A DNA stretch of 5,564 nt from the IMG/VR virus record IMGVR_UViG_2711768034_000005. One strand, written 5' to 3'. The notes below the pieces were generated by a model. It was not told the DNA's origin. It did not search any database and worked only from the letters and a program-made list of their open reading frames with translations. Position numbers and translations under genes: made by a program. The stretch is from a virus (lineage: Duplodnaviria > Heunggongvirae > Uroviricota > Caudoviricetes). Of the stretch, positions 1 through 5,564 are shown piece after piece; position 1 is the first letter of the stretch; every line of letters starts with the position of its first letter.

Positions 1-232
1 CCAGCTGGCGTTTGAGACGTGCAATCTCGGTAGACATCTCCAGTTCACGTTCAGAAGACGTCTGCTGATTTTGCTGTTTACTGCGCCAGTTGTAGAGTTG
101 TGATTCATACAGGCTGAGTTCACGGGCTGCGGCAGTAACACCGATGCGTTCAGCAAGCTTCAGGGCTTCACTGCGAAATTCAGGCGAATGCTGTTTACGG
201 GGTTTTTTACTGGTTGATACTGTTTTTGTCAT
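1..232 (-). CDS. insE: IS3 transposase OrfA (InsE-type HTH protein), N-terminal 77 codons; 3' end truncated by the window edge
   Basis: Minus-strand translation from the ATG at 230-232 gives MTKTVSTSKKPRKQHSPEFRSEALKLAERIGVTAAARELSLYESQLYNWRSKQQNQQTSSERELEMSTEIARLKRQLA, matching IS3 OrfA from memory. Not in the supplied ORF track because it runs off the window. Confidence 0.88.
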   Translation of the reverse strand, partial: MTKTVSTSKKPRKQHSPEFRSEALKLAERIGVTAAARELSLYESQLYNWRSKQQNQQTSSERELEMSTEIARLKRQL

Positions 233-257
233 GTGAGTCACCTCTGACTGAGAGTTT

Positions 258-297
258 ACTCACTTAGCCGCGTGTCCACTATTGCTGGGTAAGATCA
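258..297 (-). repeat. IS3 terminal inverted repeat (IRL), approximately 40 bp
   Basis: Terminal TGATCTTACCC... motif (minus strand) ending at 297. The inner boundary is approximate because the other end of the element is not in the window for comparison. Confidence 0.6.
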
Positions 298-446
298 TAC
301 CTCTTTCGCTCTCGTCAGAATTCCATCAAGATTAATTGCTAAAAAGCGTGCTAAAGAAAGAAGATCGTTATCGGCGAACGGGCCGATCACTCATGCAGGA
401 AGCATAGATCCTTTGAGCGGAGTTTCTGATATCTGAGGAGTGCGAA

Positions 447-1208
447 ATGCAATTGAGCAGCAGTGAACCTTGCGTGGTGATCCTGACCGAAAAAGAGGTA
501 GAGGTAAGCGTCAATAACCATGCTACGTTTACCCTTCCGAAAAACTACCTGGCCGCCTTCGCGTGCAACAATAACGTCATTGAACTCTCAACGTTAAATC
601 ACGTATTAATCACCCACATCAACCGTAACATCATCAACGATTATCTGTTGTTTTTAAATAAGAACTTAACCTGTGTAAAGCCCTGGTCGCGGCTGGCAAC
701 CCCGGTTATCGCTTGTCATAGCCGTACACCGGAAGTGTTCCGGCTAGCCGCCAACCACAGCAAGCAGCAACCCAGCAAACCCTGCGAAGCGGAGTTGACG
801 CGCGCATTACTTTTTACCGTATTGTCTAACTTTCTTGAGCAATCGCGGTTTATTGCCCTACTGATGTATATCTTACGCAGCAGCGTCCGCGACAGCGTCT
901 GCCGCATTATTCAAAGCGATATTCAGCATTACTGGAATCTGCGAATTGTCGCCAGTTCGCTATGTTTAAGCCCCAGCCTGCTCAAAAAGAAATTAAAAAA
1001 CGAAAATACCAGCTATAGCCAGATTGTCACAGAGTGTCGTATGCGTTACGCCGTACAGATGTTATTGATGGATAACAAAAATATCACTCAGGTGGCGCAA
1101 TTATGTGGCTATAGCAGCACGTCGTACTTTATCTCTGTTTTTAAGGCGTTTTACGGCCTGACACCGTTGAATTATCTCGCCAAACAGCGACAAAAAGTGA
1201 TGTGGTGA
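447..1208 (+). CDS. envY: AraC/XylS-family transcriptional regulator EnvY (porin thermoregulatory protein), 253 aa
   Basis: ORF 447..1208 with RBS GAGGAG at 435-440, 6 nt before the ATG. The C-terminal AraC-type HTH region (LSPSLLKKKLKNENTSYSQIVTECRMRYAVQMLLMDNKNITQVAQLCGYSSTSYFISVFKAFYGLTP) and the full-length sequence match E. coli EnvY as I recall it. Low GC. Confidence 0.88.
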   Translation: MQLSSSEPCVVILTEKEVEVSVNNHATFTLPKNYLAAFACNNNVIELSTLNHVLITHINRNIINDYLLFLNKNLTCVKPWSRLATPVIACHSRTPEVFRLAANHSKQQPSKPCEAELTRALLFTVLSNFLEQSRFIALLMYILRSSVRDSVCRIIQSDIQHYWNLRIVASSLCLSPSLLKKKLKNENTSYSQIVTECRMRYAVQMLLMDNKNITQVAQLCGYSSTSYFISVFKAFYGLTPLNYLAKQRQKVMW

Positions 1209-1253
1209 AGGGCAAAGCGGAAACGGATAAGACGGGCATAAATGAAGAAGAAA

Positions 1254-1298
1254 TGGCGCGCCCTGCAGGATTCGAACCTGCGGCCCACGACTTAGAAG
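1254..1298 (-). pseudogene. 3' fragment (about 45 nt) of tRNA-Arg(UCU) argU: prophage attachment-site core (attR), pauD-like tRNA pseudogene
   Basis: Reverse complement of 1254-1298 is CTTCTAAGTCGTGGGCCGCAGGTTCGAATCCTGCAGGGCGCGCCA, i.e. anticodon loop (UCU) through T-arm, acceptor 3' strand and CCA of argU. The sequence 5' of this (1299 onward) does not supply a D-arm or a complementary acceptor 5' strand, so it is a partial copy, not a functional tRNA. Confidence 0.85.
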
Positions 1299-1499
1299 TT
1301 CCTAGAACGACATTTTAAGTCAACAACTTACCGCGCCATCTCTGCGCTCACACGTCCCACTACCTCAAAACATGTAAAGCCTTGCAAGCCATTGTGAGGC
1401 CTTATGTGTCTCAGTTTTGTCCCTCTTTTTTGTACTAAAAAACATAGCAATTGAGGATAAACCTCATGCTATTTTCGCTTATATGCCTCTAAAGGCATA

Positions 1500-1720
1500 G
1501 CGCTTAAATAGATAAAAACACCACAAAAGCATAAAAAACCACACAGTAAAACCGCAATATAAAACAATAACAGATAATTAAACCAAAAACAGATAGCGCA
1601 TTGTGATAATCATTCAATACTAAACAAAATATAAACAGTGGAGCAATATGTAATTGACTCATTAAGTTAGATATAAAAAATACATATTCAATCATTAAAA
1701 CGATTGAATGGAGAACTTTT
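1500..1720 (+). promoter_or_regulatory. AT-rich ompT upstream region (promoter/leader) with RBS GGAG at 1710-1713
   Basis: Very AT-rich A-tract-rich sequence directly upstream of ompT; Shine-Dalgarno GGAG 7 nt before the ATG at 1721. The exact -35/-10 elements cannot be fixed from sequence alone. Confidence 0.4.
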
Positions 1721-2674
1721 ATGCGGGCGAAACTTCTGGGAATAGTCCTGACAACCCCTATTGCGATCAGCTCTTTTGCTTCTACCGAGACTATATCGTT
1801 TACTCCTGACAACATAAATGCGGACATTAGTTTTGGAACTCTGAGCGGAAAAACAAAAGAGCGTGTTTATCTAGCCGAAGAAGGAGGCCGAAAAGTCAGT
1901 CAACTCGACTGGAAATTCAATAACGCTGCAATTATTAAAGGTGCAATTAATTGGGATTTGATGCCCCAGATATCTATCGGGGCTGCTGGCTGGACAACTC
2001 TCGGCAGCCGAGGTGGCAATATGGTCGATCAGGACTGGATGGATTCCAGTAACCCCGGAACCTGGACGGATGAAAGTAGACACCCTGATACACAACTCAA
2101 TTATGCCAACGAATTCGATCTGAATATCAAAGGCTGGCTCCTCAACGAACCCAATTACCGCCTGGGACTCATGGCCGGATATCAGGAAAGCCGTTATAGC
2201 TTTACAGCCAGAGGTGGTTCCTATATCTACAGTTCTGAGGAGGGATTCAGAGATGATATCGGCTCCTTCCCGAATGGAGAAAGAGCAATCGGCTACAAAC
2301 AACGTTTTAAAATGCCCTACATTGGCTTGACTGGAAGTTATCGTTATGAAGATTTTGAACTCGGTGGCACATTTAAATACAGCGGCTGGGTGGAATCATC
2401 TGATAACGATGAACACTATGACCCGGGAAAAAGAATCACTTATCGCAGTAAGGTCAAAGACCAAAATTACTATTCTGTTGCAGTCAATGCAGGTTATTAC
2501 GTCACACCTAACACAAAAGTTTATGTTGAAGGCGCATGGAATCGGGTTACGAATAAAAAAGGTAATACTTCACTTTATGATCACAATAATAACACTTCAG
2601 ACTACAGCAAAAATGGAGCAGGTATAGAAAACTATAACTTCATCACTACTGCTGGTCTTAAGTACACATTTTAA
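1721..2674 (+). CDS. ompT: Outer-membrane protease OmpT (omptin, protease VII), 317 aa precursor
   Basis: ORF 1721..2674. N-terminal signal peptide MRAKLLGIVLTTPIAISSFA followed by STET.... Omptin catalytic residues are present at the expected places (precursor D103 and D105 in VDQDW; D230 and H232 in SDNDEHYD, equal to mature D83/D85/D210/H212). The full-length sequence matches E. coli OmpT from memory. Confidence 0.95.
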   Translation: MRAKLLGIVLTTPIAISSFASTETISFTPDNINADISFGTLSGKTKERVYLAEEGGRKVSQLDWKFNNAAIIKGAINWDLMPQISIGAAGWTTLGSRGGNMVDQDWMDSSNPGTWTDESRHPDTQLNYANEFDLNIKGWLLNEPNYRLGLMAGYQESRYSFTARGGSYIYSSEEGFRDDIGSFPNGERAIGYKQRFKMPYIGLTGSYRYEDFELGGTFKYSGWVESSDNDEHYDPGKRITYRSKVKDQNYYSVAVNAGYYVTPNTKVYVEGAWNRVTNKKGNTSLYDHNNNTSDYSKNGAGIENYNFITTAGLKYTF

Positions 2675-2690
2675 GAACGCCAACTAAAAT

Positions 2691-2720
2691 TTCCCCGAGG
2701 TGAAAATCGCCCCGGGGAAT
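2691..2720. terminator. Putative bidirectional hairpin terminator between convergent ompT and appY
   Basis: Imperfect inverted repeat TTCCCCGAGG ... CCCCGGGGAA (one mismatch, 9-nt loop) 17 nt after the ompT stop, flanked by AAAATTT on one side. The U-tract is weak on the plus strand and somewhat better on the minus strand (AUUUUA), so function is uncertain. Confidence 0.4.
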
Positions 2721-2922
2721 AACTAGCCATTTCAATGTAACAATTAACCCTTAAAATAAACCCAGAAGGTTATTAACTAAATCACATAGAAAACCATCAA
2801 TTATAGCATGTATAAAATAGGCGACAGCAACCCAATTACAAATTAATGGTTCCAGAATATCACATCAAAAAAACGCTGTATAATATTATAATTAACATGT
2901 AGACAACTTGTAATAAACATTA

Positions 2923-3672
2923 TCAGTCAATTGTTTTGTTTATTCCATCTGTGACGCCGATTATTTTCTCAAAATAATGAGATGGCGTGACACCATAATA
3001 ATCTTTAAATGCACATATGAAATATGAAGTACTGTTATAGCCACATTTCTGGGCTACGACATTGATAGAATAAGAGTTTGAAGTTATGAGTTTTTTTGCA
3101 TACCTCATCCTAGTATCTCTCAATATTTCAGTAAATGACGTTCCTTCATCCCTTAATCTTTTTTTTATTAAACTTTCACTCGTATAAATCAATTCCGCAA
3201 TATCTTTTAAATGCCATTGCCGCTCAATATTAAAACTGATTATTCCAGTAATTTTACAGGTAAATGTATTTATATTTGTTAGTATAAATGAATTTACACT
3301 TTCGCGTTTTTTGAACATGGCAAGTAAGGATATACATAGTCTTTCTTTTAACCAAAGGGAGTGTGAGTCTGCTATTTTAATCCCTTCAAACAGAGAAAAA
3401 ACAAGCGATAATGGAGGTTCCTCTTCAGCAATATAGCCATTCTTATCAAGAGTAAATTTGCCAGGCAGCTCATTATTCACGTCGATAAAAAAGGATAAAC
3501 ATGTTTTCTTATCTATATCAACAATTCTTAGTTTAGAGGGGCATACTGGTAACTCCCTTCTAATTTTGTCGCTTACAATAAACAATGAATTTTTTTTGAA
3601 CGAGATAACTCCCCTGTTTATAATTAAATCAAATGATTGACAGATGAAAACTACGGAGCAAACATAATCCAT
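2923..3672 (-). CDS. appY: AraC/XylS-family transcriptional regulator AppY, 249 aa
   Basis: ORF 2923..3672 (minus). The translation [56 protein letters not shown]... with a C-terminal AraC HTH ([19 protein letters not shown]) matches E. coli AppY from memory. Plausible RBS AGGTG 4 nt upstream of the ATG. Low GC. Confidence 0.92.
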
Positions 3673-4217
3673 CTTGCACCTATCATAAAATTAAAACAAG
3701 TTGATAGCAGTCAAATAACAACCAATTAAATACACAATCATAATCAGGATGATGTGCATTTATATTTTTATACACAAAATTATAGTTTGCAAATTTTAAT
3801 AAATTTCATTTAAGATTAAATTATTATATGTATATTGTTTTTTATTCTAACGTATTTCAAAGTTACATTTTTCAACGCTTACTATACTTTTTATTAACAT
3901 AAACTCACTACAACGCACCTGAAACCTCTTGCTATATATATGTCAACCGTTTGAATTTAAAATAAAAAGAGTATCATTTTTACTTGCATTTCTTATCAAG
4001 TCACATTCAACAACAGTAAAAAAACATTATTAGAACCATTCAATTAACAAAAAACCAACATCCAGCTTGCTTAATTTTTCTTTATTAAACGACATTGAAA
4101 ATCAATTGATAAAATACATCTAAACAACCTTTTGGGGCGCAAAAGCATAACATCAAACAAACAAATAACACACCGAAAAAACTCACAATTAATAACCTAT
4201 GATATACATACTGTTTA
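3673..4217 (-). promoter_or_regulatory. Long AT-rich upstream/leader region of appY (candidate promoter and nucleoid-protein-bound silencing region)
   Basis: About 545 bp of strongly AT-rich, A/T-tract-rich DNA with no ORF of 60 aa or more, lying between the tfa remnant and the appY start. Assignment as the appY control region is by position only. Confidence 0.4.
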
Positions 4218-4429
4218 TTATGGTTGAATAAGCCACTCGATATCTGGTGCTACGGAAGTGTCCACACGGTTTAGCAGCACCCGATACTTTTTTCAGGCTT
4301 CCAGCAACGATCTTTCTTCCTCCGTTGCGATTTCCAGATCTACAGCATCCTGCAGTGGCGCAATATACTCACTGAATTCCTGGATGTAGAACTGTGTGGT
4401 GACGGTCTTCCAGCCATTCGGCTCCTGCT
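4218..4429 (-). pseudogene. Tail fibre assembly protein (Tfa-like) C-terminal remnant with an in-frame stop; tfaX-like pseudogene
   Basis: Minus-strand frame ending at stop 4218-4220 translates ...[67 protein letters not shown]. The [19 protein letters not shown] motif is the conserved C-terminus of lambdoid Tfa proteins as I recall it. An in-frame TGA sits at 4293-4295. The upstream boundary is the junction with the FII fragment at about 4429/4430. Confidence 0.6.
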
Positions 4430-4495
4430 GTACCCGCGTATCGTTTCATCGGCGCAGGCAATGGCAGCATCGAACAGGTTATCGAAATCAGCCAC
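4430..4495 (-). pseudogene. Lambda FII-like head-tail joining gene, N-terminal 22 codons only (deletion-truncated)
   Basis: GTG at 4493-4495 (minus), 11 nt after the FI stop, with GGGAGG RBS; translation MADFDNLFDAAIACADETIRGY matches the start of lambda gpFII from memory, then homology ends abruptly at about 4430. Confidence 0.65.
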
Positions 4496-4506
4496 AGCGC
4501 CTCCCG

Positions 4507-4905
4507 TTATTGCATTCTGGCCAGGCCGCGCTCTGTCATTTCGGCTGCCACACCGGCAGAGACACGAAACGCCGTTCCCGGCAGCACAAATGCCACAGGT
4601 TCATCCCGCGTGGCGTGAAGTGCATCAGTATGCAGCTTCACCAGTGCCACGACCGTGACCAGTTCAGACGTATCCAGAATCACGGTATCCGGCTGCGCTG
4701 ATCCCACCTCATTTTCATGTCCGGTCAGCACATTTTCCCGGCTGAGAGGGGTGTCCTGACCGGCAGTTTCATCCGTGTCATCAAGCTCCTCTTCCAGCTC
4801 TGCCACACGGAGCGCCAGTTCTTCTTTCGTCCCCGTCAGGCTGACATCACGGTTCAGTTGTTCACCCAGCGAGCGGAGACGGGCAATCAGTTCATCTTTC
4901 GTCAT
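4507..4905 (-). CDS. Lambda FI-like DNA-packaging protein (gpFI), 132 aa, apparently intact
   Basis: MTKDELIARLRSLGEQLNRDVSLTGTKEELALRVAELEEELDDTDETAGQDTPLSRENVLTGHENEVGSAQPDTVILDTSELVTVVALVKLHTDALHATRDEPVAFVLPGTAFRVSAGVAAEMTERGLARMQ. Start ATG at 4903-4905 preceded by RBS GGAGGAG (4909-4915). The supplied 145-aa ORF (4507..4944) begins at an upstream in-frame ATG that lies in the E-FI spacer; I prefer the internal Met with the RBS. Confidence 0.82.
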   Translation of the reverse strand: MTKDELIARLRSLGEQLNRDVSLTGTKEELALRVAELEEELDDTDETAGQDTPLSRENVLTGHENEVGSAQPDTVILDTSELVTVVALVKLHTDALHATRDEPVAFVLPGTAFRVSAGVAAEMTERGLARMQ

Positions 4906-4946
4906 GGACTCCTCCACAGAGAAACAATGGCCCCGAAGGGCCATGA

Positions 4947-5043
4947 TTACGCCAGTTGTACGGACACGAACTCATCAGGGTCAGCCAGCAGCATCAGCGG
5001 TGCTGACTGAATCATGGTGAACTCACGCGCCGGATCCGCCAGA
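4947..5043 (-). pseudogene. Lambda E-like major capsid gene, C-terminal 31 codons plus stop (deletion remnant)
   Basis: Minus-strand frame LADPAREFTMIQSAPLMLLADPDEFVSVQLA* ends at stop 4947-4949, 41 nt upstream of the FI start. Position and spacing fit the E-FI arrangement of lambda-like phages; identity of the short fragment is by synteny plus partial recall. Confidence 0.6.
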
Positions 5044-5200
5044 TTTCGGCATACCATTTTATGACGGCGGCAGAGTCATAAAGCACCTCATTACCCTTGC
5101 CACCGCCTCGCAGAACGGGCATTCCCTGTTCCTGCCAGTTCTGAATGGTACGGATACTCGCACCGAAAATGTCAGCCAGCTGCTTTTTGTTGACTTCCAT
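5012..5200 (-). pseudogene. Terminase small subunit Nu1 (nohD-like), N-terminal 52 codons fused out of frame to the E remnant; truncated pseudogene
   Basis: ORF 5012..5200 translates MEVNKKQLADIFGASIRTIQNWQEQGMPVLRGGGKGNEVLYDSAAVIKWYAE, matching the lambda Nu1 N-terminus (winged-HTH DNA-binding domain), then IWRIRRVSSP* which is E-derived sequence read out of frame. Homology to Nu1 stops at about 5044. Confidence 0.85.
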
Positions 5201-5420
5201 TGTTCATTCCACGGCCAAAAACAGAGAAAGGAAACGACAAAGGCCCAAAAGCTCGTTTTCAGCACCTGTCGTTTCCTTTCTTTTCAGGGGGTATTTTAAA
5301 TAAAAACATTAAGTTACGACGAAGAAGAACGGAAACACCTTAAACCGGAAAATTTTCATAAATAGCAAAAACCCGCGAGGTCGCCGCCCCGTAACCTGTC
5401 GGATCGCCGGAAAGGACCCG
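5201..5420 (-). other. Lambda-type cohesive end site (cos): cosB 5201-5377, cosN 12-nt cohesive-end sequence 5378-5389, cosQ region about 5390-5420
   Basis: Reverse complement of 5371-5400 reads GACAGGTTACGGGGCGGCGACCTCGCGGGT, containing the lambda cohesive-end sequence GGGCGGCGACCT. The sequence between cosN and the Nu1 start closely matches the lambda cosB region (Nu1-binding R sites and IHF site) and 5390-5564 matches the lambda right-end sequence, all from memory. Confidence 0.82.
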
Positions 5421-5564
5421 CAAAATGATAATAATTATCATCTGCATGTCACAACGTGCATCTACGCCATCAAACCACGTCAAATAATCAATTATGACGC
5501 AGGTATCATATTAATTGATCTGCATCAACTTAACGTAAAAACAACTTCAGACAATACAAATCAG

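Follow-up and report, generated by a model that had tools for sequence, protein, structure and literature searches.

The stretch of DNA analysed here (5,564 nt, hereafter the window) comes from E. coli and forms the right end of a lambdoid cryptic prophage of the DLP12 family, a family that inserts at argU and has appY, ompT and envY at the right end. With high confidence we read it as the late-gene stump of a lambda-like prophage of this family, which was cut down by stepwise deletion and in which the still intact FI gene is a passenger. A first-pass annotation of the same DNA had described a packaging module collapsed by two clean deletions around FI, and had offered two alternatives for the survival of this gene: chance, or retention for another reason such as use by a co-resident lambdoid phage. 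Our comparisons make it most likely that FI owes its survival to its position and to the recent origin of the lineage, not to usefulness, i.e. that it is a neutral passenger.

Results

Organisation of the window

As judged from the listing of open reading frames and from annotated genomes, the prophage is oriented in reverse relative to that of K-12. On the minus strand the order is cos, Nu1 (52 codons), junction J1, E', a 41-nt spacer, FI, an 11-nt spacer, FII (22 codons), junction J2 and tfaX', after which come appY, ompT, envY and IS3 (Table 1). The lambda gene order cos, Nu1, E, FI, FII, tfa with two junctions is the one given in the first-pass annotation, whose coordinates were right to a few bases. 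A BLAST comparison with lambda returned three blocks: window 5389..5044 corresponds to lambda 1-347 at 97.4%, window 5040..4429 to lambda 7068-7678 at 99.5%, and window 4374..4232 to the tfa gene of lambda at 85%. From 4432 to 298 the window is collinear with K-12, with 99.4% identity over 4,137 nt, and the succession tfaX'-appY-ompT-(tRNA-Arg remnant)-envY that marks the right end of a DLP12-family prophage was found as in K-12.

The tRNA-Arg remnant (window 1252-1301) matches, at 98% identity, the 3' portion of the tRNA-Arg gene that lies at the left attachment site of the sister locus L001, and is the pauD/attR scar of the prophage. ARAGORN called no tRNA in the window because this argU-like piece is a 50-nt remnant only. 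The left end of the prophage lies outside the window; in the sister loci L001 and L005 a tRNA-Arg gene is found there beside fimZ, together with a partial integrase.

Table 1. Features of the window in the order of the minus strand; primes denote gene remnants.
Feature	Position	Strand	Remarks
Lambda-type cos region	5201..5564	-	cosQ-side sequence, cosN, R-site inverted repeats of cosB; upstream of Nu1
Nu1'	5045..5200	-	Terminase small subunit codons 1-52; identical to lambda Nu1 residues 1-52
J1	5036..5044	-	Lambda nt 347, TCT filler, lambda nt 7068 onward, one extra G
E'	4947..5040	-	C-terminal remnant of major capsid gene, about 30 codons and stop, without own start codon; matches lambda 7068-7160
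E-FI spacer	4906..4946	-	Native, 41 nt, identical to lambda; hairpin ATGGCCCTTCGGGGCCAT and GGAGGAG ribosome-binding site
FI	4507..4905	-	DNA-packaging chaperone, intact, 132 codons and stop; from lambda comparison and PF14000
FI-FII spacer	4506..4496		Native, 11 nt
FII'	4430..4495	-	Head-tail joining gene codons 1-22; GTG start, R14C relative to lambda
J2	4429..4432	-	Single remaining TACA copy; 4,908-bp deletion relative to precursors L006 and L007
tfaX'	4218..4428	-	C-terminal remnant of tail-fibre assembly gene and 47 nt of upstream sequence; shared with DLP12 of K-12
DLP12-family cargo and attR end	298..4217		appY 2923-3672 (-), ompT 1721-2674 (+), envY 447-1208 (+); from ORF list and K-12 annotation
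tRNA-Arg remnant	~1252-1301		50 nt, between ompT and envY
IS3 end	1..297	-	Adjoins envY upstream region; matches the annotated IS3 copies of L001, L006 and L007 at 100%

The cos region and the junction J1

Against circularised lambda (48328-48502 joined to 1-347) the cos region aligns collinearly, with 96% identity. Its cosN, GGGCGGCGACCT at about 5389..5378, is identical to that of lambda, and the R-site repeats of cosB, AGAAAGGAAACGACAG and CTGTCGTTTCCTTTCT, are preserved. With cosN and the R sites of cosB both present, the lambda cos site looks complete at the level of sequence despite the loss of terminase, and cos is retained in all relatives examined. Nu1 shows no difference from lambda in its first 156 nt, against about 20 differences in the 365 nt upstream, a pattern which suggests a mosaic boundary near the Nu1 start.

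The identity of Nu1' to lambda continues to window position 5044, which equals lambda nt 347. From there the frame runs on out of register for 10 residues and stops, giving a 62-aa ORF (5012..5200). Nu1' covers only profile positions 1-52 of 164 in Pfam PF07471; by this profile and by comparison with lambda, a complete Nu1 including the C-terminal region of gpA interaction is absent from the window, and in relatives Nu1' is annotated by PGAP as a pseudogene.

Base-by-base comparison with lambda resolved J1 into the TCT filler at 5043..5041, the resumption of lambda nt 7068 at 5040, and an extra G at 5037/5036. Relative to lambda, 6,720 bp are deleted, from Nu1 codon 53 to E codon 311, with the loss of A, W, B, C, Nu3, D and most of E. 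No microhomology and no direct repeat was found at the ends of J1, and the fusion is out of frame. The translation of E' ends in DPAREFTMIQSAPLMLLADPDEFVSVQLA before the stop at 4947, and 29 of its approximately 30 codons read as in lambda. A parental E gene naturally reading ...NLADPAREF was considered as the source of the deviation and rejected: six prophages with intact E match lambda at this place, and the TCT and the extra G therefore arose at J1 itself. A template for the filler was sought as well; ATCTGGCGG occurs in lambda at 6433 and 14520, and as reverse complement at 5143 and 22111, a match of 9 nt that is too short to demonstrate templated insertion.

The joining of Nu1 codon 52 to the end of E was thus correctly recognised in the first-pass annotation, except that about 30 codons of E remain and not 31. 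The word clean that it used for both deletions suits J2, which has TACA microhomology (see below), but not J1 with its filler and extra G, and neither fusion is in frame. Of 5,426 complete E. coli genomes, 11 (0.2%) gave a full match to a 201-nt query across J1, and the 62-aa Nu1' fusion ORF was found in 479 blocks of the assembly collection.

FI and its spacers

FI differs from lambda by one nucleotide and its product from gpFI by one residue, K38E, so that 131 of 132 residues are identical. The protein scores 198.9 bits against Pfam PF14000 Packaging_FI (cut-off 27), its residues 2-129 aligning with profile positions 1-131 of 131, and residues 72-132 are identical to the C-terminal domain of gpFI in the structure PDB 2LSM. 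The exact 132-aa protein occurs in 21,177 blocks of the assembly collection; among the loci read with it are several lambda-like prophages in which A, W, B, C, D and E are present, and each full-head lambda-like prophage read there has its own FI. The earlier description of FI as a full 132-codon frame with its native ribosome-binding site and native-looking spacers of 41 and 11 nt is borne out by the base-by-base match to lambda, as is its full-length identity to gpFI. Inactivating substitutions relative to functional gpFI were looked for and not found: K38E is the only change, and the exact protein is also present in full-head prophages.

The GC-rich hairpin of the E-FI spacer (window 4927-4944, minus strand) is the same as in lambda and was listed in the scan as terminator-like; if the polymerase is not modified by Q, transcription running on into FI might be limited by it. 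Upstream of cos there is a sigma-70-like match, so that low-level expression of FI is possible. The scan for promoters and terminators gave counts near the shuffled expectation and is uninformative.

The junction J2

The two copies of TACA that bound the J2 deletion are found in L006 at 10133-10136 and 15041-15044, and the window holds a single one (4432..4429). In the precursors the left side reads ...GGGTACA/TGGG... and the right side ...TTCAA/TACAGCAGG..., the slash marking the break. A 4-bp direct repeat of which one copy is left is the signature of a microhomology-mediated deletion, which could have arisen by slippage or by microhomology-mediated end joining. What was lost is the remainder of FII together with Z, U, an S74-peptidase tail-fibre gene, tfaD' and the ybcY methyltransferase gene. 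FII' runs on out of frame into a 51-aa ORF.

On the right, J2 lands 47 nt upstream of the tfaX' pseudogene. This remnant covers profile positions 75-130 of 131 in PF02413 Caudo_TAP (with the stop read as W) and contains an in-frame TAG that is the same in K-12 and in the precursors; in K-12 it is annotated by PGAP as a pseudogene. Because tfaX' is already truncated in K-12 and in the precursors, J2 is not the source of the tfa truncation. The junction after FII codon 22 seen in the first reading of the sequence is therefore real, but it did not create the tfa remnant.

J2 is found in few places. A 201-nt query across it gave no match covering at least 80% in any of 5,426 complete RefSeq E. coli genomes, and the exact 45-nt pattern had no match in GTDB representative genomes or JGI metagenome contigs. 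An exact look-up of the 51-aa FII' fusion ORF returned nothing because gene callers do not call that ORF. Carriers were found by way of the 62-aa Nu1' fusion ORF, and J2 is present in at least two independent GenBank assemblies. One is L021 (GCA_974490235.1, contig of 4.66 Mb), with one mismatch over the whole 5,564-nt window; the other is L022 (GCA_045610645.1, contig of 4.61 Mb), which has J1 and J2 plus a deletion of its own, adjacent to IS3 and reaching into ompT. The architecture is accordingly rare, J2 being known only from a few draft or other GenBank assemblies.

Relatives and the decay series

The earliest stage of the lineage seen is L020, a human gut metagenome contig (ERZ917683 k127_6724) with J1, FI, FII, Z, U, V, G and T, and with H running off the end of the locus. 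Over positions 6001-12189 it appears as a head-less prophage still carrying tail genes. In L006, L007, L018, L025 and L027 the lambda sequence is gone from the beginning of V onward: the identity to lambda stops at nt 8964, beyond which lie an S74-peptidase tail-fibre gene, tfaD', an intact ybcY methyltransferase gene, tfaX', appY, ompT and envY. In L006 and L007 the segment cos-Nu1'::E'-FI-FII-Z-U is present to the left of the fibre gene, and removal of exactly 4,908 bp would turn L006 or L007 into the window, with 99.8-100% identity on either side of J2.

Other members of the lineage end differently on the right. L005 ends in IS26 inside U, L019 and L023 pass into T6SS genes just past FII (at approximately lambda 8064), and L001, L010, L024 and L026 have IS3-adjacent right-hand deletions. 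Copies of the IS3 end were located at window 1-297, L006 18739-19035, L022 9399-9696 and L001 9862-10160. They adjoin the upstream region of envY in the window, the inside of envY in L006, ompT in L022, and the S74 tail-fibre gene in L001, L010, L024 and L026, which looks like a set of nested IS3-adjacent deletions eroding the prophage from the right. In the sister genomes PGAP annotates a 'DNA-packaging protein FI' between pseudogenes.

A second, independent collapse of the head module was observed in E. coli genomes outside the lineage (L012, L014 and L016, approximately positions 1-6000), where the identity to lambda resumes at nt 6370 (about E codon 79) and the genes from FI to L look intact. 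The genes immediately upstream code for a D5_N primase, SSB, AlpA, and capsid and decoration proteins resembling E and D, respectively; this cluster may be a satellite-like element.

Sequence variation around FI

Between the end of the window and J2 (1,136 nt), 12 of the 15 J1 loci show no difference from the window, and in the lambda-derived block 2 of 611 positions depart from lambda. Given this near-identity, both within the lineage and to lambda, an intact 399-nt FI ORF is the null expectation; the lineage has existed for too short a time for decay of FI to be expected, and dN/dS carries no information. Among the few deviating loci, L007 has a single change in FI and L005 has four, clustered in what looks like a recombination patch; the PGAP accessions of both products differ from WP_000158905.1 and from that of the L001/L006 allele. 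In L022 the Shine-Dalgarno run GGAGGAG of FI is one G short, at approximately 6289 (window 4911-4912), 6-7 nt ahead of the start codon. None of the few variants in the area of FI points to purifying selection.

FI is intact in every J1 locus examined, both in the complete genomes (11 of 11) and in the sampled assemblies (10 of 10), and no member of the J1 lineage without FI was found among them. This uniformity is weak evidence of retention because the loci are nearly clonal, with about three independent right-hand endpoints in the FI-U block. By a rough estimate, if about three endpoints fall uniformly in the E'-U block of about 1.9 kb, the chance that none hits FI or the sequence upstream of it is about 0.4. 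Moreover, in less decayed relatives FII, Z and U (once also V, G, T and H) are as intact as FI. FI is thus not specially spared; it is the neighbour of the old junction J1 that all these loci share.

Discussion

Probable stepwise erosion of the prophage

The locus is best explained by stepwise erosion. An early illegitimate recombination at J1 would have taken 6.7 kb, from Nu1 codon 53 to E codon 311, and with it packaging and head assembly. A later event would have removed the genes from V through the side tail fibre, leaving a V-to-stf junction, and in the sub-lineage of the window this junction would subsequently have been erased by J2, when 4,908 bp between TACA tetranucleotides were lost, taking Z, U, the fibre gene, ybcY and the remainder of FII with them. 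The truncation of tfaX' would be an older event, common to K-12. Both deletions of the first-pass annotation are part of this history, but two events do not suffice for it and more are needed. Such stepwise deletional decay of prophages is an established process.

FI would have stayed intact for several reasons: it lies immediately to the right of the oldest junction, J1; the later deletions come from the right and happen to stop short of it; and the lineage is too young for point mutations. With the terminase, portal and capsid genes gone, FI is likely a functionless passenger, and could at most complement incoming lambdoid phages or recombine with them. Of the two alternatives put forward earlier, chance survival is thus favoured by the near-clonality of the lineage and by the equal intactness of FII, Z and U in relatives, whereas retention for another reason gained no tested evidence in its support.

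Alternative readings

That FI is kept by selection, either as a supply of packaging chaperone to a co-resident or superinfecting lambdoid phage or for an acquired host function, would agree with its intactness, native ribosome-binding site and native spacers in all loci of the J1 lineage seen, and with an allele identical to that of full-head prophages. We nevertheless regard it as improbable. The sequences diverge too little for selection to be detected; FII, Z and U were equally intact in the sisters and were then lost without consequence; and L022, which shares J2, has a deletion in the very Shine-Dalgarno run of FI. The full-head lambda-like prophages that were read each bring their own FI, and the only known action of gpFI is to assist the docking of terminase-DNA complex I on proheads (PMC4856287), while the ORF listing and the BLAST comparison with lambda found no terminase or prohead genes in the locus.

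Instead of FI, the unit that matters might be the intact cos with its neighbours. Should the terminase of an infecting lambdoid phage cut at this chromosomal site, cos would serve as a decoy or trigger abortive infection, or would permit one-directional packaging of the adjacent appY-ompT-envY. Although the lambda-identical cosN, the preserved cosB repeats and the presence of cos in all relatives examined are in line with this, we give it a very low probability, outcomes included: DLP12 of K-12 has a matching cos side (97.9%, window 5564..5044), so the feature is not specific to this locus, lambda packaging needs a second cos to finish, and the reading is silent on FI. The same very low probability is given to the broader proposal that FI, or the cos-Nu1'-FI stump as a unit, is retained through interaction with infecting or co-resident lambdoid phages; were it true, the stump would supply or titrate a packaging factor or offer a cleavable cos, and phage yield or the mobilisation of ompT and appY would be affected. 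Finally, the junctions could be artefacts of assembly or a chimeric joining of two prophages, as the absence of J2 from the 5,426 complete RefSeq E. coli genomes, the GTDB representatives and the JGI metagenomes might suggest. This we hold to be next to impossible. J1 recurs in 11 complete genomes and 479 assembly blocks, and J2 in two independent assemblies with contigs of megabase size, one with a single mismatch and the other with its own IS3 deletion; assemblers do not join sequences on a 4-bp overlap, and the precursors hold both sides of J2 in one collinear prophage. An assembly artefact at the junctions, which the first-pass annotation had named as a finding that would refute it, is thereby ruled out in practice.

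Significance

The preferred reading, a stepwise-eroded prophage with FI as a passenger, makes the locus a case of ordinary prophage erosion, and the finding itself is real. It provides an example, resolved to the base, of a filler-type junction, a 4-bp microhomology deletion and several IS-adjacent deletions, with intermediates in public genomes, and could be used for teaching or to mark the lineage of the carrier strains. The locus does not support a domestication of FI, and in so young a remnant selection should not be concluded from the intactness of an ORF.

Comparison with known systems

Compared with the E-FI-FII segment of lambda (nt 7068-7678), the window has two substitutions and one indel over 611-612 nt, and the spacers, the ribosome-binding site and the intergenic hairpin are identical. 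The difference lies in what surrounds FI: the window is devoid of its partners (the C-terminus of Nu1, A, B, C, Nu3, D and most of E), and FII is cut at codon 22. The sister remnants in CP062853 (an O9:H10 pig isolate), CP019280 and LR881940 share J1 and are 100% identical to the window from cos to FII codon 22, but they keep FII, with or without Z and U, and have right ends formed by the V::fibre junction, IS3, IS26 or T6SS genes; J2 is shared with the window only by L021 and L022.

The layout also differs from that of DLP12 in K-12, as the first-pass annotation had proposed (a full-length nohD followed by terminase and tail-fibre pseudogenes) and as K-12 annotation and alignment confirmed. 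K-12 has a full-length nohD, an A' fragment, tfaD', ybcY' and tfaX', and is without E, FI or FII sequence, whereas the window has Nu1 cut at codon 52, the E' stub, intact FI and the FII' stub, and is without tfaD' and ybcY. The two nevertheless have in common cos and the start of Nu1, tfaX' with the identical in-frame stop, and appY, ompT, the tRNA-Arg remnant and envY at the identity given above, and relatives of the window reside, like DLP12, at the tRNA-Arg gene beside fimZ.
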